Position numbers and translations under genes: made by a program | Shown here: positions 20,204 to 55,351 of the stretch, piece after piece | Numbering within the stretch: position 1 is the first letter of the stretch | Layout of the letters: each line of letters begins with the position of its first letter | Sequence record: OR352938.1 | DNA: 64,000 nt | Strand: one strand, 5' to 3' | DNA from: Escherichia phage AV108 | Notes under the pieces: generated by a model | What the model saw: the letters and a program-made list of their open reading frames with translations, nothing else | Databases searched by the model: none | Told to the model about the DNA's origin: nothing

Positions 20204-20872
20204 TTATCCCCTTTGTTTCTTAACTGAATTTGGATCTGGATTTTCGGGCAAGTCTTCCAGACCCATAGCATAACGTTGTGCATAGATTAGCATAAGAATA
20301 TCGCGAGCGCAATCATGAATTGCATCATGCGCGATAAACCCGTCTAGCGTACCCATTGGTAACGGGCATTCACACATACCACGATGCATCAATGTACGCT
20401 CAATGGCGGTGCGAACGTCTCGGATGTTCCAGAATCGCACAGGTTCAAGATTGAACGTCTCACGGGTATTGTGTGCACGGCGGATCATATCAACTAGTAA
20501 CGGAATATCAAACGCATTACCGCGTGACCACATTACTGATTTAACCGGATCTACCCCTACGGCTTCACAGAATGCGTTAAAACGCGCTAAACCTTCTTTA
20601 GTTGATACTTCCGTACCATTTGTGATTAATTGCTTTCTCATGCCTTCTGAGGCGGTATTCTTCCACCATTCAACCACACCATGATCAAAGATCCTTACAC
20701 CTTTCTGGGAAGGAATATCAAATTTTACCAGAAAGGAATTGTCAACCAGTTCTTTAAATGTAGGTGGATTGTGCGGATCTTCTTTAAATCCGATTGCCGC
20801 CATATTGATCACCGCCCCATCAGGCGGATAACCTAAACTTTCAAAGTCAATCATTAAATCCACTGGAAGCAT
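20204..20872 (-). CDS. dexA: exonuclease A (DnaQ-like 3'-5' exonuclease)
   Basis: Strong match to T4 DexA (IDFESLG; VEWWKN; LEPVRFWNIRDVRTAIE; CPLPMGTLDGFIAHDAIHDCARDILM). Confidence 0.85.
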   Translation of the reverse strand: MLPVDLMIDFESLGYPPDGAVINMAAIGFKEDPHNPPTFKELVDNSFLVKFDIPSQKGVRIFDHGVVEWWKNTASEGMRKQLITNGTEVSTKEGLARFNAFCEAVGVDPVKSVMWSRGNAFDIPLLVDMIRRAHNTRETFNLEPVRFWNIRDVRTAIERTLMHRGMCECPLPMGTLDGFIAHDAIHDCARDILMLIYAQRYAMGLEDLPENPDPNSVKKQRG

Positions 20873-20873
20873 T

Positions 20874-21125
20874 TTAAATATCCTCCGCGATGTGTCGGAA
20901 CAACTCCAGGTCGTTTTTATCTAACACTAGATTGCATTTGGTTGACCGATAATTGCAAACATTAATCAGTAAACTTTCCATCGCCTGTACCGACTGTACT
21001 TTATGTCGAAAAGACATTACATGTTGTGCATAATCAGCGTGAATTTTATCACGATGGAATGTTACGATGGCATCTAAACATAACAGTTTATCAAGTTCAT
21101 CAATAATCATCATATCAGGAACCAC
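20874..21125 (-). CDS. hypothetical protein
   Basis: 83-aa ORF. Confidence 0.35.
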   Translation of the reverse strand: MVPDMMIIDELDKLLCLDAIVTFHRDKIHADYAQHVMSFRHKVQSVQAMESLLINVCNYRSTKCNLVLDKNDLELFRHIAEDI

Positions 21126-21297
21126 GCTTAGTGAAGTGATCTATCATGGAATTAATACAATCGGCCTCGCTGATTCCAGATATACCCCATCCGTAGTTAC
21201 CCCACCTGAAATGCATGTATACACATTCGCCATGATACGATACTTTCACTTCGTCAAATTCTGGGATACTTCGCATAATCATAATAATATTCCTCAA
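21115..21297 (-). CDS. hypothetical protein
   Basis: 60-aa ORF; possible TTGACT promoter upstream. Confidence 0.3.
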   Translation of the reverse strand: MRNIIMIMRSIPEFDEVKVSYHGECVYMHFRWGNYGWGISGISEADCINSMIDHFTKRGS

Positions 21298-21373
21298 ATA
21301 TAGTCTACACGATACCGTGCACGGGTAACACCCACATATAATAACTGCATTGCCAATTCAAAGTCAACATTAT

Positions 21374-22675
21374 CTAAGGGGTATACAGGAACACGCGGTC
21401 TACGCTGATTCCTTGTGACTTATGAATAGTGCAAGCTGGTAATGCTTTTACATTCAAGAACATACGCTTCATCGTCCAGAAAGAATCCCAATCCGGTTTA
21501 AAATTCGGATTCTCTTTCTTCATTTCGCGATATTGTCCGGCGACCGTATTCAGATAGATAGAGAAAATGTTCTTCTGACGTTGTTCTGTCAGAATGTTGA
21601 TTTCTACTAAATCTGGTTTATCTGTAGTGATTCCGACTGCATCTAAACCGACTTTCTGATTTAGGATTTCTTTGTCTTCGTCATCATCGACGCTTTCCAC
21701 TTTCAGAGTATAGCCTAAAACTGGTTGCGGATCTACCCCCGTGCAACGTAATGTAAATTCGCGCGGTATAACCTCTTTAACTCGGATCATCTCACCATTG
21801 TTAAAAATAACATTGGGGATCTTCTTCCCGCGTTCATCTCGCAGATATTCGATCAATGGTTCCTGAGTAACCAGAATTTCATCTACAATCACTGGTTCAT
21901 CGGTGTTATAAACGCGCTTACGTACAATTTCATTGAGTTTTTCGACGCTCTTGTTAGTGTAGGCCAGAATACGGTTTTCTAGAAGGTCTTCCGGCGTTTT
22001 AACGGTTTCGAAATAATGCTTCATAAACTCCGGCAGAGTTGAGCTATGGAATACACCCTCGTTACCGCACTGCTTTTCGAATACCCATTTACCATTACGG
22101 ACAGCGGTCGCCACATCAATTATTGGCGCATTAGATCGTTTAATCTCTGTAAGTTCTACATTCTGAAACCTTTCATCGGTGAAGAAAGGAGAGATCGACG
22201 TTGCGCCGCTCGGATCAACTGGTCGTAACTGGTACAGATCACCCACGGCAATAATAACAATTCGACCGTTGATACTCTTCATGAGAATATCAAATAGTTT
22301 CTTATCGACCATACTCGCTTCATCAACAATGATGATCTGAACATCATCTAGCTTAGGAGTATCTTTTTGCTCAAATACTTGAGTATCTTCATAGTTGGTC
22401 GGGTTTAGTCGCAGTAGTGCATGTAAAGTAAATGCTTGACGACCTACCGCTTTACTCAAAACTTTTTTAGCCTGGTGGGTAGGCGTTGCCAAAACCACAC
22501 CAGTTACACCACGGCGGACCATTTCCTGAACAATGAATTTCATCATTGCGGTTTTACCAGTACCCGCCGCACCACGGACAGTTGTATGCTTCTTTTGTTC
22601 AATGCGTTTCATTAGAACATCAAAAGCATGTTTTTGCCCGTCTGTTAACATATCGAAAGTTAATACTCTGCTCAT
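21374..22675 (-). CDS. dda: Dda DNA helicase (SF1)
   Basis: 433 aa; Walker A GAAGTGKT, Walker B IIVDEASM; T4 Dda size and position. Confidence 0.85.
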   Translation of the reverse strand: MSRVLTFDMLTDGQKHAFDVLMKRIEQKKHTTVRGAAGTGKTAMMKFIVQEMVRRGVTGVVLATPTHQAKKVLSKAVGRQAFTLHALLRLNPTNYEDTQVFEQKDTPKLDDVQIIIVDEASMVDKKLFDILMKSINGRIVIIAVGDLYQLRPVDPSGATSISPFFTDERFQNVELTEIKRSNAPIIDVATAVRNGKWVFEKQCGNEGVFHSSTLPEFMKHYFETVKTPEDLLENRILAYTNKSVEKLNEIVRKRVYNTDEPVIVDEILVTQEPLIEYLRDERGKKIPNVIFNNGEMIRVKEVIPREFTLRCTGVDPQPVLGYTLKVESVDDDEDKEILNQKVGLDAVGITTDKPDLVEINILTEQRQKNIFSIYLNTVAGQYREMKKENPNFKPDWDSFWTMKRMFLNVKALPACTIHKSQGISVDRVFLYTP

Positions 22676-22989
22676 TATCCTAAAATCCTCACCTTGCGAA
22701 CACAGATAGTATTGAGTTCTCGCCGTACCCGTTCTTTTTCATATTCAGGAATTTTATATTCGATACCATCCCGAACAATTTCAGAAGACCGGATTATGCC
22801 AAATTTTCGTTTAGGTACAACCTTGTATTTCGGTTCACCCGCCAATAGACTCTCACAATAATCTATCTGATCACACATTGACGCTAACGCAGCATCATGT
22901 GTTTCGCAAGTTAGGACGCGACCTTTCGCGTCCACTGAGTATTGAAAGAATCCGTCTTTATCACGATAACATACAGCAAATACATGCAT
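22675..22989 (-). CDS. hypothetical protein (dda.1 position)
   Basis: 104-aa ORF translationally coupled to dda. Confidence 0.4.
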   Translation of the reverse strand: MHVFAVCYRDKDGFFQYSVDAKGRVLTCETHDAALASMCDQIDYCESLLAGEPKYKVVPKRKFGIIRSSEIVRDGIEYKIPEYEKERVRRELNTICVRKVRILG

Positions 22990-23744
22990 TATAAACCTAC
23001 CTTCGCTTTCATCAATTCAATCCACGACGCATCAATCGGAAGCCCGTATTTCACGCGTTCTTTTTGTGCTGGCGTTAAGTTCTCATACTTAGAAAGAGAT
23101 TCAATCAAAACGCTGGTATATTTTAGCACGATTTCGGTATTGTTTGCAATAGCCTTAAGTTTTTCTTCTTTCTTGTTGATTTCGCTAAGGGCTTGCTTGA
23201 GATCTGCAATTTTCTGATAACGTTCTTCCATACGGAAGAGAGTATTTTTAATCGCTCGCTCGGCTGCCTCTGCTTTCTCCGGTTCGTTGTGTTTTTTATG
23301 GCGCTCGATTGCTAATTTCTTTTCTTCGATTGCCATTTCCTGATTTTTGATGCGATTCTCGTTAAGTTCGATCCACTCGATGTACTTCGCACGTAGGGCA
23401 ATTTCATCATCAGAAAGTTTACCTTTAGTTCCCAGTTCCTGGATCTCTTTAAGAGATTCGATAGTGTGATTGCCACGGAAAGAATTATATTTCAGTTTAA
23501 CCGGAATTACATTGCCATCAACATATCCCAGATTGCAATCAATGCGCTCTAAGGAGAGTCCGTCATCACCTTCACCAAACGCTTCACCTGAATATGCGCA
23601 ATGAGTCTGACGGTAAATGTTACGCACAGTGACTAAGCTCATAGAGAAGTCTTTGTTGCGACGTGAAGCGCCAGCCATGATAGAGTTCAGACGGAAAACA
23701 ACCAGCGCCAATTCTTCGTTAGATTTAAAAGCAAACAGTTTCAT
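22989..23744 (-). CDS. Srd-like protein
   Basis: 251 aa, coiled-coil-rich C-terminal half; size and position match T4 srd; by synteny only. Confidence 0.45.
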   Translation of the reverse strand: MKLFAFKSNEELALVVFRLNSIMAGASRRNKDFSMSLVTVRNIYRQTHCAYSGEAFGEGDDGLSLERIDCNLGYVDGNVIPVKLKYNSFRGNHTIESLKEIQELGTKGKLSDDEIALRAKYIEWIELNENRIKNQEMAIEEKKLAIERHKKHNEPEKAEAAERAIKNTLFRMEERYQKIADLKQALSEINKKEEKLKAIANNTEIVLKYTSVLIESLSKYENLTPAQKERVKYGLPIDASWIELMKAKVGL

Positions 23745-23773
23745 AATTGATTCTCCTTAGTTGGTATGTGTGT

Positions 23774-23802
23774 ATTATTGTCTATCTGGTTTGTGCTGTC
23801 AA
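23774..23802 (-). promoter_or_regulatory. sigma70-type early promoter
   Basis: TTGACA-N17-AATAAT upstream of the srd-like gene. Confidence 0.45.
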
Positions 23803-23805
23803 CAC

Positions 23806-24309
23806 TTAAATTAAAGAAAATTTGTAAATCTCTATCAGATCGCCGTTACACGCGTAAACTTCCTCGATCTCATCAAGGATCATGGTCGTCCCTGTCTTGT
23901 ATATGCACTCGCGCTCATCTGCCAACATAGCATACAAAGACAGTCGAGTAGTCGGATTGTCATACTCTTTAGACACCACTCGGTCAATAGCATGTTCGTA
24001 ATAATTCATGCAAGGCTTGGTAGGTTTTATTGCAATAATCTTTCCTGTTGCATAAACATCGGTTGCAAAGTCCTCTGCTGTTGATTGCAGTGGCGTAAAG
24101 CTCATAGGACGCTCTACAACGAAAGAATCACCTACAATTAAGGTATCCAGCTTACGACCTTCTCTTTTGCTCACACCGCGATACAAGGCTTCATGATGCA
24201 CTAACCGTTCAGTCTTTTCGATCAATCCATTAAGGATCGACATATCGATATTTTCTTTAGAGTTCATCACTTCATCAATGATGTTAAGTTCTTCTGGTGT
24301 AAATTGCAT
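23806..24309 (-). CDS. putative ADP-ribosyltransferase (ModA/ModB-like)
   Basis: Ordered R-S-E signature: LYRG, then QSTAEDF, then DERECIY; position matches T4 mod genes. Confidence 0.45.
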   Translation of the reverse strand: MQFTPEELNIIDEVMNSKENIDMSILNGLIEKTERLVHHEALYRGVSKREGRKLDTLIVGDSFVVERPMSFTPLQSTAEDFATDVYATGKIIAIKPTKPCMNYYEHAIDRVVSKEYDNPTTRLSLYAMLADERECIYKTGTTMILDEIEEVYACNGDLIEIYKFSLI

Positions 24310-24310
24310 A

Positions 24311-24342
24311 ATAAAAAAGCCTCCAATCTTTCGACAGGAGGC
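24311..24342 (-). terminator. intrinsic terminator
   Basis: gcctcc-N12-ggaggc hairpin with T-run on the leftward strand. Confidence 0.5.
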
Positions 24343-24372
24343 ATAATAAAACCATTATAGAGTAGTGTCAAC
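24343..24372 (-). promoter_or_regulatory. sigma70-type early promoter
   Basis: TTGACA-N18-TATTAT immediately after the terminator. Confidence 0.45.
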
Positions 24373-24378
24373 TAATTT

Positions 24379-24897
24379 TTAGTAGCCGCGTTCTTGACGG
24401 GCGAAGTTTTCAGCATTTTTCAGATAGTACAGCTTGAAGATATCCTTAGCGGTTAAACCTAAGCCCAGCATTTTAATCAGCACAAAATGCCAGATATCGA
24501 TCAATTCCATCACAATTTCGGTTTTATCGTCATCTGACAGATCAGCAAATTTACGCGCTCGTGCTTCGCCGTGGTTCTTCTTCCACACTTTAGTAATTGC
24601 GCTTGCATCTTTGCCATTTGACATGCCACCCAGGGCAACATAAAGTTCTCGTGTCTCGTCGTCGATTGCGTCATCCCACAACTTCATCCAGTCAAGGATC
24701 TCCCCGCAAGTTTCCAGCTTATCAGGATGCATTACCCACTCAAATTTATCAGCTAGTGCGACCTGTAATCCTTTTTGCATATCTAACATTACTTGCAGCG
24801 GATCTTTACCGCTAGTGATTGCCTCGGAATACGCAATACCAGCTTTAGACATAGTTTCATCATTAACAAGACCAGCACAAGAATTAAATTCACTCAT
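24379..24897 (-). CDS. putative dCTPase/dUTPase-like all-alpha NTP pyrophosphatase (gp56-like)
   Basis: Start taken at MSEFNSCAGL; helix-rich, DPLQVMLDMQ, ELIDIWHFVL motifs resemble MazG/gp56-type enzymes; by eye only. Confidence 0.45.
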   Translation of the reverse strand: MSEFNSCAGLVNDETMSKAGIAYSEAITSGKDPLQVMLDMQKGLQVALADKFEWVMHPDKLETCGEILDWMKLWDDAIDDETRELYVALGGMSNGKDASAITKVWKKNHGEARARKFADLSDDDKTEIVMELIDIWHFVLIKMLGLGLTAKDIFKLYYLKNAENFARQERGY

Positions 24898-24907
24898 AAT
24901 AAACCTC

Positions 24908-25471
24908 TCAAATAACATTAAACACTGCAAATTCACCGTGATACTTATACGCATAGTCATTATATACTATTGCGGCGTCTATTTCTAGGTCAAATTGTCC
25001 TATATAGACTTTATTTCCTTCATTGTCCCTTATCTGGGCGACCCATTTACCCGAACGACTATTATAATGCACTCCTTTAAAATTGCTAGTTTTAGTTTGG
25101 TTGTTTCTTCTCATATTTTGGGTATTCTGTTTTTGTGTCGCCTCTCTTAAGTTTGGAGGATCGTTGTTCTCTGGATTCCCGTCAATATGGTCAATGACAG
25201 GTGGGCAATACCCATGCTCTAAGAAGAATACTATTCTATGCACAAGCTCAAAATATTGTTTTCCTTCAAAAGAAAATGAGACTTTTAGGTGTCCGGCTGT
25301 GACTTTAGATACCTTTACTATATCACCAACCTTATAAAACTGGCCTTCTTTCGTCGTTCGGCTTGCTTTGCTGTTTGTTTTATGAATCAATATACCCCTT
25401 TCGTGTCTATATCTTCGACGTATTTCATCCTTTAATTCATCGCTCCATTCTTTGGCTTTCCTTACCCTCAC
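24908..25471 (-). CDS. free-standing HNH homing endonuclease with AP2 DNA-binding domain
   Basis: HNH motif HRIVFFLEHGYCPPVIDHIDGNPENNDPPNLREATQKQN; AP2-like FKGVHYNSRSGKWVAQI...YIGQFD...EIDAA. Confidence 0.75.
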   Translation of the reverse strand: MRVRKAKEWSDELKDEIRRRYRHERGILIHKTNSKASRTTKEGQFYKVGDIVKVSKVTAGHLKVSFSFEGKQYFELVHRIVFFLEHGYCPPVIDHIDGNPENNDPPNLREATQKQNTQNMRRNNQTKTSNFKGVHYNSRSGKWVAQIRDNEGNKVYIGQFDLEIDAAIVYNDYAYKYHGEFAVFNVI

Positions 25472-25488
25472 AATACAACCCTCATTAA

Positions 25489-26517
25489 TTAAAATTTACA
25501 ATATTTCATAAACCGCATTTTAGCCATCAGACCTTGTACGGTGTTCTCTTTGATATATTCCATGATCTGGTCGCGTGTAGCGCCCTCGTCCTGAATCATG
25601 GCGTTAACGTCTTTAGAATGCCACGGGCAACGATCCCACAATACAATCTTTTCCCCTGCATTGATAAACTTTTCCAGTCGGTGCATTGTATCGGCAGACC
25701 GTGGTTCCGCATCAAGTACAAACACTCGCTGGTCTGGGAAAGGGATTTCATCTAATCCCAAAGTACCGCCAGTAATTGCACACCCGTTATCAATAAACAA
25801 TGAATCGATCGGACCTTCTAAGAAATACACTGGTTTACTCGGATCGGCGCGTTCAAGACCATAGACCTTACTCGCTAACTCGTGAGTTTTAATCGTCATA
25901 TATTTGGTCTTTCCGTAATCCTTTCTCAATGCTCGCCCCTGAATGGATTCTATCTTGTTCTCGCGGTTAAAGATAGGAATCACTAAACGCGGTTCAGGTT
26001 GTGGATTCTTGAAAGTATCCGCCTTAATGTGATTTGCTACCTTTTGCCATTCTCTCGTGAAATACAGAAGATCCCATTTATCGTGAGGAATACAGCGATC
26101 ACTGACATACTTTATTATAGGATGATTAGCCGGAAGAGTATCTAATCTCTCGCAGAAAGGCAATGTTTGCACTTTCTTAATCTCCGGCTTTTCTACCTTT
26201 TTCAGTGGCTTGAACGTGGTGTTCTTGTGGTCGCCTTGTTCCTTCCGTCGTTCCATAAGCCATTCCCTGAATAGGTCCGGCTTATACTGTTTGAGAAATT
26301 CACCTAACGGCTGATTGTAGTTACAGTTGAAACAGCCGCAACGCAAACTATCCTTATAGGTATAGATACGGAATCGCGCCATTGTGCTATTCTTTTTGGA
26401 ATCTCCGCAGATCGGACAACTTGCTACTAACGTAAATGAGTTAGTATGTAACCGCTTGAAATTTCGTTCGCCGTATATGGCTTTTTCCGCTATTTCATAA
26501 TCTGCGTAGTAAATCAT
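25489..26517 (-). CDS. 61: DNA primase
   Basis: 342 aa as T4 gp61; N-terminal zinc ribbon CPICGD...CGCFNC; TOPRIM-like EGPIDSLF and VLDAEP. Confidence 0.9.
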   Translation of the reverse strand: MIYYADYEIAEKAIYGERNFKRLHTNSFTLVASCPICGDSKKNSTMARFRIYTYKDSLRCGCFNCNYNQPLGEFLKQYKPDLFREWLMERRKEQGDHKNTTFKPLKKVEKPEIKKVQTLPFCERLDTLPANHPIIKYVSDRCIPHDKWDLLYFTREWQKVANHIKADTFKNPQPEPRLVIPIFNRENKIESIQGRALRKDYGKTKYMTIKTHELASKVYGLERADPSKPVYFLEGPIDSLFIDNGCAITGGTLGLDEIPFPDQRVFVLDAEPRSADTMHRLEKFINAGEKIVLWDRCPWHSKDVNAMIQDEGATRDQIMEYIKENTVQGLMAKMRFMKYCKF

Positions 26518-29926: not shown

Positions 29927-30997
29927 TTATGCTAACATATCTTCGATTTCTTTGTCAACTGCTTCGTCGCTGATCACTTGCCCCAGCTTATAATGATCGT
30001 TGATTGCTTCGTTAAACTTATCGTTTGTCAGAAGTGGTTTCCAGAACTCAATGCTATTGGTTTCTTTAGCACGGAACTTGCGTTCTTCGGTTTCCATCTC
30101 TCCGGTCTCGGTATTCAGGATTGAACGAGAATACCAGCCGTTTGACGGTTTCACTACCCAGCCTAACTCTACAGCCAACTCCAGCAAACCGGAATAAGGA
30201 TCGATGCCACCGCTAAATGTTACGCTAATCGGGAACTTAGATTTTTCTTTAACGGTTCGTGATTTTTCCGCATTCAGGATAAAATCATAACCAGTAATTT
30301 CGGTTCCTTCTTTCTGCTGACGACGACCAATAATGAAAACTTCATTGGCTGAATACATCGCGCCAGTACCGCCGGACATAACGGTCTTACTAAACATTTC
30401 TTGCGTTTCGTAAGTGTGGTTAATAGCGATGCACGGGATATCATTCATAGTCAGATACGGCGTAACCATACGGAACAAGCCTTTAAGTGCTTTCGCTCGC
30501 GTCATATCCTGTGCGGATTTCTCATTAATCGCGTCTTCAACTTCTTTTTTACTTGCTAAGTTACCGATTGAGTCAATAAAGATGATCACTTTATCTTCAC
30601 GGGTAATTTGCTCAAGCTGGTTCATGATTTCAAATTTAAGTTCTTCGATGTTCTTGATTGGAACATGCACCACGCGATCAGGATCTACACCCATAGATTC
30701 CAGATATGCGGAAGTAATGCCAAACTCAGAATCAAAGAACAAGCACGCCGCATCAGGATTCTGTTTCATGTATGAACTAACACAAGTTAATCCCATGTTT
30801 GATTTAAAGTGCTTAGATGGACCAGCAAAGAAAATCAGACCAGATTGAAAGCCTTTTTTAAGATCACCTGAAAACGCAATATTCAGCATCGGGATCTTAG
30901 TGCGAGTATTTGTTTTTTCGTTAAAGAAGCTGGATTTAGACAGTACCGCAGTAGTTTTCAGGGTAGAGTTCTTTTTCAGTTTTTCCAGTACAGACAT
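29927..30997 (-). CDS. uvsX: UvsX recombinase (RecA-like)
   Basis: 356 aa; Walker A FAGPSKHFKS, Walker B IIFIDSIG, RecA-core features. Confidence 0.9.
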   Translation of the reverse strand: MSVLEKLKKNSTLKTTAVLSKSSFFNEKTNTRTKIPMLNIAFSGDLKKGFQSGLIFFAGPSKHFKSNMGLTCVSSYMKQNPDAACLFFDSEFGITSAYLESMGVDPDRVVHVPIKNIEELKFEIMNQLEQITREDKVIIFIDSIGNLASKKEVEDAINEKSAQDMTRAKALKGLFRMVTPYLTMNDIPCIAINHTYETQEMFSKTVMSGGTGAMYSANEVFIIGRRQQKEGTEITGYDFILNAEKSRTVKEKSKFPISVTFSGGIDPYSGLLELAVELGWVVKPSNGWYSRSILNTETGEMETEERKFRAKETNSIEFWKPLLTNDKFNEAINDHYKLGQVISDEAVDKEIEDMLA

Positions 30998-31008
30998 TAT
31001 TAATACCT

Positions 31009-31197
31009 CTATTCAGTTAATCCGTAATACTTTAATTGCTTCATTGTTATTCGATCTTTGTAGTGCTCTTGAATTAACTTTTTCATCGCATCAACATCGA
31101 TCGTCACAAATACTTCGTTGCTGTGATTTCCGTGAACTTTCTTGAAATGCTCTATGCCTTCCTCACGTTCACGTTTAATCTTTTCAATGTCTCTCAT
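31009..31197 (-). CDS. hypothetical small protein
   Basis: About 62 aa from MRDIEKIK; the only ORF between uvsX and gene 43. Confidence 0.3.
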   Translation of the reverse strand: MRDIEKIKREREEGIEHFKKVHGNHSNEVFVTIDVDAMKKLIQEHYKDRITMKQLKYYGLTE

Positions 31198-31241
31198 AGT
31201 ATATTTCTCACGTTGGCGGGTATCGTCACCCAACACCCGCC

Positions 31242-31269
31242 ATTATACACACTTTATCTTAAATGTCAA
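31242..31269 (-). promoter_or_regulatory. sigma70-type early promoter followed by 5' hairpin
   Basis: TTGACA-N16-TATAAT, then stable hairpin ggcgggt...acccgcc at about 31215-31241. Confidence 0.45.
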
Positions 31270-33937
31270 ACAGGTCAGTCAGAGAAGCAACTTTTTCATA
31301 TTGCAGCTTTGCAGCCGTGGTAATGTTCTCCAGTGGTTTGACGAAAGTCTTATTAAACAACAAAGGCCAGTCTAACCACTTTAACACCTCTGATTCAATT
31401 TCTGGTGGAATACGAGTACCAGACAACCAACCAAAACAGATTTCTCCAAACGGATTTCGATCTTTAAGCGGTACAATCATAACCTTCTCGCCTTCACGAA
31501 TCGGATCTAGTCCGAATTTTCGAGCATTACGATTATAACACAATACACTCTTAACCGCATACGGACAACCCTTAATCGGATACCCGTTTGAATCGCTGTA
31601 TTTCTGTAGGTTGTTTGCAGATGATACCGCAGCAACCTCAAGATAGTCAAGTTTTCTAAACTCTTGCTCAAAAATACCGTAGTATTCCTGCAATGACTCT
31701 TCCCCTTCCTGCAACATACGGCGAATACATTCTTTCAGTGATTTCTGACATGCTTTAGGGGTAGAGCTACGTTGCGTTTCCAATCCCATGATTTTTAGCT
31801 TAGGTTCAGCAAAGCGCGTTCCTTCCATATCCCAAACATTAAGAGCATAGCGTTTTTTACCCGTCCAGAATCCACCGATACCCGCAGATTTCAACGGAGG
31901 ACCAGCAATTGCCTCACGGTCCATAAACATCAAGTGCTCGTAGTTGTTCATGTACTCGCATAACTCGCGATATCCCTTGTCGATAATAGGTTCCATTCGA
32001 TGTTTACCGAAATTATCAAGGAAGTCAACAAGTTTTTCGGTATCATCGAAACGGTCTTCCCCGCCAACCTTATCAACAACATTGTTAACCAGCACATAAA
32101 CGGAGTCAGTATCACAATAACGAACATATGCAAAATCAGTTGTTCCACAAAGCTCGTTTAAGTATTCGTTAATCTTACGCTCAATCCACTGAATTGCAAG
32201 CTGACCGAACAGTGTGATCGCACTAGCGTTACGGAGATCATAAAAACGGAATTTAGGATTCCCCAACGCACCATAAAGGGAGTTGATCAAAACTTTTCGA
32301 GAAAGCTGGTTTGTATTGCACAAGATCGACTCGTCTTTACATTCTTCCAGCAATTTCTCTAAGGCATCTTTACTTAATGCAGAAAGCATCGATTTAAACG
32401 CTTCATCAAAGTCGTGACGCACTTCAACGCTATAGCTAATGGTTCCCCCATAAACATGATTTTCATCGTGTAGAATCGCTTTACATAGTTCAGCATTGCG
32501 ATCACATGCCAACATCATGTTTTTGTACTGCTTGCGCTGGTCGAATACCTTTTTAATCTCAATCGGTACGATACCATGAATATCTTTTCGATACATCCAC
32601 CCGTTAGGCGAGCAAGAATACTCATCACTCGGACGTGGTGCAGTTTTATTGATATATTCGTGCATCGGTGCAGCATCAAAAGATCCAGCGATTGTTTCAG
32701 GCGAAATATTAACCTGTCGAATAATAGATGGGTACAGACTTGTTAAGTCAAAGCTCATCATCCAACGGTAAGCATTCGGCACAGGTTCTTTTACGAATGC
32801 GCCCGGATAGGTCTGCTTAGGCTGTATCTTGTTCTCTGGTACTACTTTACCCTCAGCTTTCAGAGATCCGAAGATAATAGCATCCCATACTTTCATCGGG
32901 TTATAAACATGGTTAAATTTAATCTTTGCATAGAAACATAGGCTATACACCAGATCAATAAAACCACGCTTTTTATCAATCGCCAGAACACGATCAACGT
33001 CGCCGATGTTATAATCGATGTAAAGTTGATGGTTGTCATCACGCAATTTCTTTAACGGACCATCATAATCAACCTTACCTATTCCGGTCTCATATTCAGC
33101 AACATAATCTAAGGCATATGTTGGTTGAGTCGTAAAGCTAAATTTCTTGTATAAGTCAATGTAATCAAGGCTTTCGATCCCCATGATCGTAAAGGCTTCA
33201 CGCTCGTTGCCAAAATCATCCTGTGAGATTCGGGATTTAATCTTACCGCACGGGCTTAGACGGTTGGCGGTTCTACTTCCGAACTTATTACTGATACGTT
33301 TAATGATATACGGAATATCGAATGTTTCTGTGTTCCAGCCAGTGAAACCAACGGGTCGGTTTTCCTCAAAGAATCGGATGTATTCTAACAGCAATTCATC
33401 TTCTGTGTCATAAACGTTATAAACAACGCGCTCTACAATATCAGGTCGAAGAATAGACTTGCTTGCTTCCCAGATTTCACCGTTTTTTCCTTTCAAATCA
33501 AATACAAAGAAACGATCATGTACGGAATCATAATGCGTAATTGCATCGATAGGATATTTCGCTTCTTCTGGTTTAGGAAATTCCGGTGCAGTGACCTCGA
33601 TATCAACCCATGCTACACGGATTTTATTTCGGTCATATCGAATCTCGCCTTTATATGTATCGGACAGATAGGAGATGATAAAATCATCCATCCCTAGTGC
33701 CTCCTGCCCCATTTCTCCCATCTTTTTACGCCATTTGTTGGCCTCGTTCATAGATGGGAATTTTTTAGCAATGCAAGGCTTGCCATAGATATCTTTATAA
33801 TTCGTAACCATACCAGGCGCGGCATGATGAAATAAAGTTGGCGTATATTCAACGTAACGCTCTTGTTCTTGTCCAGCATCATCAATATAACGCTCGTAGA
33901 TCTTATCACCCACTCGCTCACATGACAGAAAATACAT
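31259..33937 (-). CDS. 43: DNA polymerase (family B)
   Basis: Exo motifs, YGG region, Pol C motif CDTDS; start placed at MYFLSCERVGDKIYERYID by alignment to the T4 gp43 N-terminus; track ORF extends 10 codons into the leader. Confidence 0.95.
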   Translation of the reverse strand: MYFLSCERVGDKIYERYIDDAGQEQERYVEYTPTLFHHAAPGMVTNYKDIYGKPCIAKKFPSMNEANKWRKKMGEMGQEALGMDDFIISYLSDTYKGEIRYDRNKIRVAWVDIEVTAPEFPKPEEAKYPIDAITHYDSVHDRFFVFDLKGKNGEIWEASKSILRPDIVERVVYNVYDTEDELLLEYIRFFEENRPVGFTGWNTETFDIPYIIKRISNKFGSRTANRLSPCGKIKSRISQDDFGNEREAFTIMGIESLDYIDLYKKFSFTTQPTYALDYVAEYETGIGKVDYDGPLKKLRDDNHQLYIDYNIGDVDRVLAIDKKRGFIDLVYSLCFYAKIKFNHVYNPMKVWDAIIFGSLKAEGKVVPENKIQPKQTYPGAFVKEPVPNAYRWMMSFDLTSLYPSIIRQVNISPETIAGSFDAAPMHEYINKTAPRPSDEYSCSPNGWMYRKDIHGIVPIEIKKVFDQRKQYKNMMLACDRNAELCKAILHDENHVYGGTISYSVEVRHDFDEAFKSMLSALSKDALEKLLEECKDESILCNTNQLSRKVLINSLYGALGNPKFRFYDLRNASAITLFGQLAIQWIERKINEYLNELCGTTDFAYVRYCDTDSVYVLVNNVVDKVGGEDRFDDTEKLVDFLDNFGKHRMEPIIDKGYRELCEYMNNYEHLMFMDREAIAGPPLKSAGIGGFWTGKKRYALNVWDMEGTRFAEPKLKIMGLETQRSSTPKACQKSLKECIRRMLQEGEESLQEYYGIFEQEFRKLDYLEVAAVSSANNLQKYSDSNGYPIKGCPYAVKSVLCYNRNARKFGLDPIREGEKVMIVPLKDRNPFGEICFGWLSGTRIPPEIESEVLKWLDWPLLFNKTFVKPLENITTAAKLQYEKVASLTDLFDI

Positions 33938-33969
33938 AATATAAACTCCTTCACTTACGAAAGACACTC

Positions 33970-54542: not shown

Positions 54543-55351
54543 TCTACGTTAGTTACATAAACTTCTTGCGTATCAGAAGACTTGCCACCTGAACGATCTA
54601 GGCAATAGGTCTTATTCAACAGGACGCAGTTTAGATCATTCCGCTTGATAAAGTCAAGAAGATGATCATTTACCTTTCCCTTATGATGCGTGACATTACT
54701 GATACCAAACTGAAAACCACGCGCCATAATAGATTCTACCCACTGATAGAATTTAATCTCTTCCTCGTCACTCCAGAACTTATTATATTCCGCAGAAGTG
54801 ATAAGATACGGCGGGTCCAAATAAACGAAATCACCTGGCAAGATCTCGATCTCGTCATATCGTCCAGAAGTAAAAATGATTCGACCGTCTTTGTTTTCTT
54901 CCTTAAAATTCAGGACACGCTCTACCGCGTTTTCGTTAAAAGTCCGGCGACCAAAATTAGCATTAAATTCTCCCTTTCGGTTATGGCGGTTAATGTTGCT
55001 AAAACTGTGCTGAATCAACACAAACAGCGATAGCGGATCTGGATTCTCGTTATACTTCTTACGAAATGTCATGTAAGCGTCTTTATCTTCGCGAGACAAA
55101 TCATTTTCGGCAATAATCCGCTTGATCGTAGAAACCGGATCAGGACACTCGTCAATCGCTTTGTACGCGTCAATTAAGCGGTGATCATAGTCATTAGCCA
55201 GCACATCCCCTTCGACGTACAGAGACACGCTCAAGCCTCCACAAAAGGCATCAACAAAGCGGTTATAGTGCTTAGGGAAATACTTACTAACACCTGGCAA
55301 TAGCTTTTCCTTATTGCCAGTATAGGGAATTAAACCTAATGCTTTCTTCAT
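54539..55351 (-). CDS. dam: DNA adenine methyltransferase (GATC)
   Basis: Match to T4 Dam: NRFVDAFCGGLSVSL (SAM binding), DFVYLDPPYLITSAEYNKFWS (DPPY motif). Confidence 0.9.
   Translation of the reverse strand: MKKALGLIPYTGNKEKLLPGVSKYFPKHYNRFVDAFCGGLSVSLYVEGDVLANDYDHRLIDAYKAIDECPDPVSTIKRIIAENDLSREDKDAYMTFRKKYNENPDPLSLFVLIQHSFSNINRHNRKGEFNANFGRRTFNENAVERVLNFKEENKDGRIIFTSGRYDEIEILPGDFVYLDPPYLITSAEYNKFWSDEEEIKFYQWVESIMARGFQFGISNVTHHKGKVNDHLLDFIKRNDLNCVLLNKTYCLDRSGGKSSDTQEVYVTNVD

Follow-up and report, generated by a model that had tools for sequence, protein, structure and literature searches.

What does gene 56 do in a phage that lacks gene 42? The dCTP-eliminating role of gp56 has no obvious purpose there. 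The question is raised by the window, the whole 64-kb stretch of DNA analyzed here, which comes from an RB49-like phage of the genus Krischvirus and is ∼96–98% identical in nucleotide sequence to Krischvirus coliphages including ELT3, G2494, KFS-EC, TB34/SAP and RB49. A first-pass annotation had noted in it a gp56-like, all-alpha NTP pyrophosphatase in roughly the T4 gene 56 neighborhood, with no gene 42 visible, and had held that a dCTPase would be pointless unless the phage had a pathway for replacing cytosine. We conclude that Krischvirus gp56 is very probably an early-gene, Mg2+-dependent pyrophosphatase of the dimeric dUTPase family that makes dUMP, and that its presence is no sign of cytosine replacement.

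The gene 56 locus

Gene 56 occupies 24379..24897 on the minus strand and encodes 172 aa; the two peptide strings that had drawn attention to it are both present, DPLQVMLDMQ at residues 32–41 and ELIDIWHFVL at residues 131–140. The start codon is the ATG at 24897, preceded at a distance of 7 nt by the ribosome-binding site GAGAGG. A mechanical ORF list had given a longer form of 193 aa, reaching to 24960. We rejected this form: it extends into the end of the gene lying upstream, and 24897 is taken as the true start because every homolog begins MSEFN or MAHFN. The features needed below are as follows.

21374-22675: dda (gene 56 neighborhood)
22675-22989: dda.1-like gene, Pfam Phage_Y01A (gene 56 neighborhood)
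22989-23744: srd-like gene (gene 56 neighborhood)
23806-24309, minus strand: mod-like ADP-ribosyltransferase gene, downstream flank (97–100% nucleotide identity to RB49 and JSE)
24319-24342, minus strand: GC hairpin overlapping the ribosome-binding site of the mod-like gene (fold z-score only -1.9)
24371-24343, minus strand: early-promoter-like TTGACA-17-TATTAT, just downstream of gene 56
24379..24897, minus strand: gene 56 ortholog, putative dUTP/dCTP pyrophosphatase of the dimeric-dUTPase family (homology, motifs, synteny)
24908-25471, minus strand: free-standing putative homing endonuclease with HNH_3 and AP2 domains, 187 aa (Pfam HNH_3 9e-14, AP2 7e-7)
25489-26517, minus strand: gene 61 primase, upstream flank (97–100% nucleotide identity to RB49 and JSE)
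29927-30997: uvsX
30998..31258, minus strand: interval from uvsX to gene 43, with one 75-aa ORF inside
31259-33967: gene 43

The order 61 / 56 / mod / srd / dda.1 / dda matches the T4 neighborhood, annotated there as 61-dam-56-segF...modB-modA-srd-dda.1-dda, so the placement suggested in the first pass stands. The mod-like gene is annotated as modB in RB49 and as modA in ELT3. Gene 56 itself is 100% identical in nucleotide sequence across the window, ELT3, TB34 and SAP; the ELT3 protein (ELT3_246), likewise 100% identical to window gp56, is annotated 'dCTP pyrophosphatase'.

Family and active site of gp56

Window gp56 matched T4 gp56 at 51.4% identity over residues 1–171 (tblastn, E 4e-53) and at 52.4% in a global alignment. 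Its score with the Pfam model PF08761 (dUTPase_2), 25.8 bits, exceeds the gathering threshold of 22.9, in an alignment that covers just the last 27 residues. T4 gp56 scored 25.4 and the RB49 protein 24.8 with the same model; the JSE protein, at 20.0, fell below the cut-off. PHROG 173, 'nucleoside triphosphate pyrophosphohydrolase', was matched at 5e-33. By homology, neighborhood and Pfam score the ORF is an ortholog of T4 gp56, an already annotated gene, and nothing is new in this identity. With over a thousand phage genomes already carrying a gene 56 annotation, finding it matters little as such.

The AlphaFold2 model of window gp56 is all-helical, with 7 helices and a mean pLDDT of 91.5 (61 over the N-terminal 10 residues), in agreement with the all-alpha enzyme originally proposed. 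Its best structural neighbors outside gp56 were dUTPase, MazG, HisE and DCTPP1. Viral NTP-PPase/MazG models matched at E 7e-3 to 0.2, and among solved structures Foldseek against the PDB placed DCTPP1, DR2231, HisE and MazG on top, weakly (best E ∼1). The metal site of the MazG/HisE/dUTPase superfamily, ExxE(n)ExxD, is found as E81xxE84 and E131xxD134, both invariant. MazG, HisE and DCTPP1 (RS21-C6) resemble gp56 at the superfamily level only (12–18% identity), with other oligomers and other base pockets.

The dimeric dUTPases were among the comparisons proposed beforehand, and profile methods led to them. With hhalign, a gp56 profile of 59 family members aligned to a Campylobacter dimeric dUTPase profile with 95.3% probability (E 2e-8) over 84 columns, the latter profile being shallow and lacking motif V, as a search with a C. 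jejuni fragment gave only truncated Campylobacter-like proteins. The gp56 family profile had a sole match in the PDB, C. jejuni dUTPase 1w2y (E 0.049), which aligned the C-terminal tail. The N-terminal half of that alignment was misregistered and was rejected; its register was corrected by hhalign. Single-sequence phmmer against the PDB gave only spurious armadillo-repeat matches and sub-threshold HisE and 1w2y matches. NCBIfam holds no gp56 model, and the score with its epsilonproteobacterial dUTPase equivalog, 15.6 bits, was far below the required 300.

All five motifs of the dimeric dUTPases (C. jejuni 1w2y and the trypanosomatid enzymes) can be placed in window gp56. Motif I, Q41..Q45..A49, is the base pocket and aligns by hhalign with C. 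jejuni Q14/N18/N22. Motifs II (E81xxE84) and IV (E131xxD134xxH137-F138) contain the metal ligands, E81/E84 and E131/D134 aligning in the same comparison with E46/E49 and E74/D77, and H137-F138 aligning with the deoxyribose sandwich H80-F81. The phosphate motif III, T102-K103-x-W105-K106, aligns with W56-K57-x-W59-K60, the first W being replaced by T in the window allele. Motif V, K160xxxN164xxR167....Y172, was placed by hmmsearch, with K160/N164/R167/Y172 falling on K175/N179/R182/Y187 of 1w2y. Roles of the C. jejuni residues are taken from PMC2954211 and PMC5608427.

Conservation was counted over 182 unique (non-identical) family members. Some 20 catalytic or ligand-binding positions are invariant or nearly so, the exceptions being 49 (A in 147, S in 33) and 102, where W is found in 171 of the 182 and T in the window allele. 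The window allele also has M at position 130, which is F in 174 relatives. With T4 gp56 it shares identical catalytic, sugar and base residues (Q/Q/A, H-F, K-N-R-Y); it differs in carrying W102T and F130M, and in changes common to its clade: E6S, S8A, a 2-residue insertion at 12–13, G15D/T, and others at 55, 64, 72, 117 and 141.

C. jejuni dUTPase has 229 aa rather than 172, and window gp56 has two insertions relative to it, at 73–76 and 88–98. Of the uracil-recognition triad (C. jejuni Gln14, Asn18, Asn22) only the Gln is kept, N18 being replaced by Q45 and N22 by A49, and this is true of every gp56, that of T4 included. The Q/Q/A triad argues against a strict-dUTPase label, not against dUTP as a substrate. 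The two replacements fit a relaxed pocket taking C or U, a fit that falls short of proof. Like T4 gp56, dimeric dUTPases accept both di- and triphosphates.

Gene 56 without gene 42

The apparent lack of gene 42 was confirmed: T4 gp42, beta-gt and alpha-gt had no tblastn match in the 64 kb. The T4 genes segA, beta-gt, 42, imm and imm.1 lie in the space that separates uvsX from gene 43, and the corresponding interval of the window, with its one 75-aa ORF, is too short for gene 42. As judged from the complete genome of ELT3, the absence extends beyond the 64 kb. The only gp42 match there was weak (tblastn, E 2e-4) and fell on the td thymidylate synthase, and beta-gt and alpha-gt gave nothing better than E 0.2 in either the window or ELT3. 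ELT3 does encode td, frd, dCMP deaminase (cd), a gp1-type dNMP kinase, tk, NrdAB and NrdDG, together with denA and a Dam-like methyltransferase; denB and alc are not among its annotations. No trimeric or other dUTPase was found in ELT3, where none is annotated and tblastn with E. coli Dut (an approximate query sequence) was negative.

We found nothing unusual in this combination. In a 2010 survey (PMC2993671, Table 4, Petrov 2010), every sequenced relative of T4 is listed with gene 56 apart from the giant phages of Aeromonas and Vibrio, where host-like dUTPases take its place; gene 42 is given there for T-even, JS98, RB69, CC31, Acinetobacter and 44RR-type phages alone. Krischvirus is tabulated as positive for dCTPase-dUTPase and negative for hmC (PMC12115623, Table 4; PMC8056088), and RB49-type phages are described as having DenA and dCTPase-dUTPase homologs without hmC genes, denB or alc (PMC8056088; PMC12115623). 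In phage-collection records we counted a gp56 homolog in 1396 and a gp42 homolog in 965, the latter including 191 unrelated Microbacterium phages (siphoviruses); roughly 600 of the 1396 have no gp42 homolog. Gene 56 without gene 42 is thus no oddity but the documented norm in RB49-like phages, tabulated since 2010.

Nor does the premise hold that gp56 needs a cytosine-replacement pathway, because the T4 enzyme is bifunctional: it is a dCTPase/dUTPase/dCDPase/dUDPase, and its dUMP-supplying role is independent of hmC (PMC2993671; T4 annotation). The presence of gene 56 says nothing about the DNA modification state, and in a phage without gene 42 and both glucosyltransferases it is not evidence of cytosine replacement. 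DNA of relatives contains ordinary cytosine, unlike that of T4. Enzymes sensitive to cytosine modification cut the DNA of RB49 (PMC4041780), and TB34 DNA has canonical cytosine by HPLC/MS (PMC13390438).

One report complicates this picture. By HPLC/MS, the Krischvirus phage SAP showed 5-hmdC and gentiobiosyl-mdC, which its authors, according to whom no known synthase or glucosyltransferase is present in Krischvirus, left unexplained (PMC13390438, 2026). Gp56 might then be a genuine dCTPase in a cryptic, gene-42-independent route of cytosine replacement, with no known glucosyltransferase, in some or all Krischvirus. SAP gene 56 is 100% identical in nucleotide sequence to that of the window, Q41/Q45/A49 equal the T4 residues, and ELT3 encodes a gp1-type dNMP kinase. 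If the SAP hmC were real, gp56 and gp1 would be the only recognizable T4-pathway enzymes, and dCTPase activity of gp56 would matter greatly. Yet TB34 matches SAP at 99.96% identity and shares its gene 56, and its cytosine is canonical. The SAP/TB34 differences that Table S5 shows are of the type C>T or G>A at CC/GG, along with 1-nt indels (PMC13390438); we read them as basecalling noise, in which case the two phages would not differ genetically. The modification profile of SAP is that of seven Tequatrovirus phages isolated with it, and of the DNAs tested BrxU cut that of SAP least (PMC13390438); together the Tequatrovirus-like profile and the BrxU result suggest that the SAP signal came from a mixed DNA preparation. 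With RB49 DNA sensitive to the enzymes named above, no gp42, alpha-gt or beta-gt homolog in ELT3 or the window, and denB and alc reported absent from Krischvirus (PMC8056088; PMC12115623), we consider such a route very improbable.

With the other parts of the T4 hmC pathway missing, gene 56 could also be a decaying, non-functional relic of an hmC-using ancestor. The ORF is intact, however, and has a ribosome-binding site. Its ∼20 catalytic and ligand-binding positions are held across 182 sequences, the gene is retained in some 600 phage records lacking gp42, and dN/dS between alleles is ∼0.2, so gene 56 is under purifying selection. These conservation data leave the relic reading effectively refuted, and we give it almost no weight.

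For the preferred reading, a dUMP-making pyrophosphatase, a mechanism can be drawn from the homologs. Acidic residues E81, E84, E131 and D134, helped by D80, D124 and E127, would hold two or three Mg2+ ions, which would activate a water for attack on the alpha-phosphate of a 2'-deoxypyrimidine di- or triphosphate. The phosphates would be held by K103/W105/K106 and K160/R167/Y172, the deoxyribose sandwiched by H137-F138 and its 3'-OH read by N164, with Q41/Q45/A49 lining the base pocket. Going by sequence, dUTP and dUDP are almost certainly substrates of window gp56, and hydrolysis of the two to feed thymidylate synthesis is its likely role. Cutting dUTP (and dUDP) to dUMP would keep uracil out of the phage DNA, whose G+C content is 40%, and would supply dUMP to the phage thymidylate synthase and DHFR. 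Any dCMP produced could pass through the phage dCMP deaminase to dUMP and on to dTMP.

Whether dCTP is hydrolyzed too, as it is by T4 gp56, we judge to be about an even bet, because the base-pocket residues equal those of T4. Counting against retained dCTPase activity, the phage needs dCTP, and the clade substitutions flank the N-terminal F-N-x-C segment. Our literature search found no enzyme measurement for gp56 of any non-hmC phage. Substrate range in an ordinary-cytosine phage would tell whether dCTP hydrolysis is ancestral and tolerated (rebalancing dC and dT) or a T-even specialization.

Alignment columns were also considered as specificity markers. About 20 separate gp56 of gene-42-positive phages from that of gene-42-negative phages, in a classification that leaves out many IMG/VR loci whose 10-kb flank ended before gene 43. 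We rejected these columns as markers, since they track phylogeny. They follow the deep divergence of Tevenvirinae from the Krischvirus/Slopekvirus/Pseudotevenvirus clade; all gene-42-negative alleles of these last three genera form one gp56 clade, and three gene-42-negative loci with a Tevenvirinae-type gp56 keep the 'positive' residues. S49, too, is found among phages outside the set classified for gene 42.

Divergent alleles and neighboring endonucleases

Gp56 sequences of the window, RB49 and JSE, all Krischvirus, are only 57–69% identical, whereas gp61 and gp41 are each at least 98% identical. Nucleotide identity is 97–100% in gene 61 and the mod-like gene and falls to 45–80% exactly within gene 56; in the comparison with RB49 it rises again over the final ∼45 nt of gene 56. 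Synonymous divergence ranges from 1.2 to saturated in gene 56, against 0.06–0.15 in the flanks. T4 and T2-like Tequatrovirus phages compare similarly (gp56 70–74%, gp61 and gp41 98–100%), as do several other lineages. These comparisons indicate that the alleles are old and functional and have been moved by recombination, not that they evolved fast in place.

Endonuclease genes are frequent companions of the gene. The HNH-AP2 gene at the 61-56 site was found (at least 95% identity) in only 7 phage records, and the window-type gp56 allele in 15, of which 8 lack that endonuclease. RB49 and G5211 have no insert, their genes 61 and 56 being 14 nt apart. JSE carries a mob-like HNH gene that overlaps gene 56 at its 3' end; in T4 the endonuclease gene is segF. 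Altogether, a recognizable endonuclease of one of three families abuts gene 56 in 12 of 74 loci. SegF-linked gp56 alleles (T4, L060, L062 and L063) cluster, although the primases of these loci are only ∼60% identical.

The arrangement recalls the 'intronless homing' of T4 segF: an endonuclease abuts gene 56, and the allele diverges from that of endonuclease-free relatives between near-identical flanks. It differs in detail, SegF being a GIY-YIG enzyme encoded downstream of gene 56 in T4, whereas the window endonuclease is of HNH-AP2 type, lies upstream and is a putative homing enzyme. SegF-mediated marker exclusion of T2 gene 56 is known from earlier work (summarized in PMC2330249). By analogy, the island pattern would be a generalization of SegF-type exclusion, and it is largely precedented.

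Allelic diversity might instead be a signature of escape, if gp56 were watched or bound by a host defense, a satellite or a competing phage. Alleles differ by 31–43% in protein within one genus between flanks that are 97–100% identical, at least five further lineages behave alike, and there is a precedent in the allelic dimeric Duts of S. aureus phages, which are tied to SaPI Stl binding and de-repression (PMC5608427). Those enzymes (phiDI, phiNM1) are likewise phage-encoded, have the same fold and occur as many divergent alleles in phages that are otherwise alike; their variation is concentrated in the central 'motif VI', with the motif IV His changed to Ala, and its reason, SaPI Stl, is known (PMC5608427). 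In gp56, by contrast, the variation is gene-wide with no single surface patch, and His137 is kept. Saturated synonymous sites (dS at least 1.2) and the dN/dS of ∼0.2 point to old recombining alleles rather than fast adaptation, and no interaction partner of gp56 is known. With endonucleases of three families beside gene 56 in the 12 loci, and SegF-linked alleles clustering across genera, selfish elements are the simpler explanation, and we regard escape as unlikely.

As a recurrent hotspot of old-allele swapping, gene 56 offers a natural system for studying endonuclease-driven gene replacement. Its use as a phylogenetic or typing marker calls for caution.

Downstream of gene 56, the early-promoter-like sequence and the hairpin (24319-24371) bear a resemblance, suggestive only, to the mobile regulatory cassettes of promoter plus stem-loop described for RB49 and phi1 (PMC2839356). 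They may, tentatively, mark a recombination boundary.

Allelic divergence at gene 56

Judged from sequence comparison, gene 56 (24379-24897, minus strand) is an island of ancient alleles with sharp borders. Among AV108, RB49 and JSE, nucleotide identity within the gene is 45–80%; in its flanking genes 61 and mod (flanks taken as 23700-26100), the same three phages are 97–100% identical. Synonymous divergence follows the same borders: dS is at least 1.2 or saturated inside the gene, but only 0.06–0.15 outside it. The dN/dS ratio of gene 56 is about 0.2. The island pattern recurs in Tequatrovirus and in several further T4-like lineages (related phage loci L006, L008, L022-L024, L030, L068 and others).

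Alleles differ even between records that share a name. OZ035808.1, deposited as Krischvirus RB49, carries the AV108-type allele (97.9% nucleotide identity), whereas the reference RB49 genomes (NC_005066/AY343333) have another, 72% identical. Stocks named RB49 are therefore not all one phage at gene 56.

Elements around gene 56

Genes 61 and 56 are separated by an insert:
24908-25471, minus strand: predicted free-standing HNH_3 + AP2 homing endonuclease

This endonuclease was found at the 61/56 site in only 7 phage records. More broadly, gene 56 adjoins a homing endonuclease of one type or another (SegF, HNH-AP2 or mob-like HNH) in 12 of 74 related loci, and gp56 alleles linked to SegF group together across genera.

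On the 3′ side of gene 56 lies an early-promoter-like sequence:
24319-24371, minus strand: candidate early promoter, TTGACA-17-TATTAT, then a GC hairpin

The hairpin is predicted to sequester the ribosome-binding site of the mod-like gene, which is suggestive only, with a fold z-score of just −1.9. The element resembles the "mobile regulatory cassettes" of promoter and stem-loop known from RB49/phi1.

T4 carries its dam gene between 61 and 56, but the Dam-like gene of AV108 is distant from gene 56:
54548-55342, minus strand: Dam-like N6-adenine methyltransferase gene, 46% identity to T4 Dam

In ELT3, a near-identical complete Krischvirus genome, the Dam-like gene is followed by a further annotated homing endonuclease.

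Cytosine modification and pyrimidine enzymes

Krischvirus SAP (OZ034687) is reported to contain hmC and gentiobiosyl-hmC, and TB34 (OX001802), 99.96% identical to it, plain C (PMC13390438). The differences between them in Table S5 of that report are C>T/G>A at CC/GG plus 1-nt indels, and look like basecalling noise. Because the SAP modification profile is that of the Tequatrovirus phages isolated alongside (PMC13390438), it seems possible that the SAP preparation was mixed.

Several T4-like genomes (IMG/VR loci L033-L036, L056, L057, L063) have, at the canonical gene 42 position upstream of uvsX, a gene whose product has just 24–28% identity to T4 gp42. By sequence, it may encode a distant pyrimidine hydroxymethylase or a thymidylate-synthase-like enzyme.

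One further gene lies outside the window:
ELT3 record 20363-21586 (locus L003): annotated thymidylate synthase, 407 aa

An insertion of about 140 residues divides its Pfam Thymidylat_synt match in two; this could be an in-frame intron, an intein-like insert or an annotation artefact.
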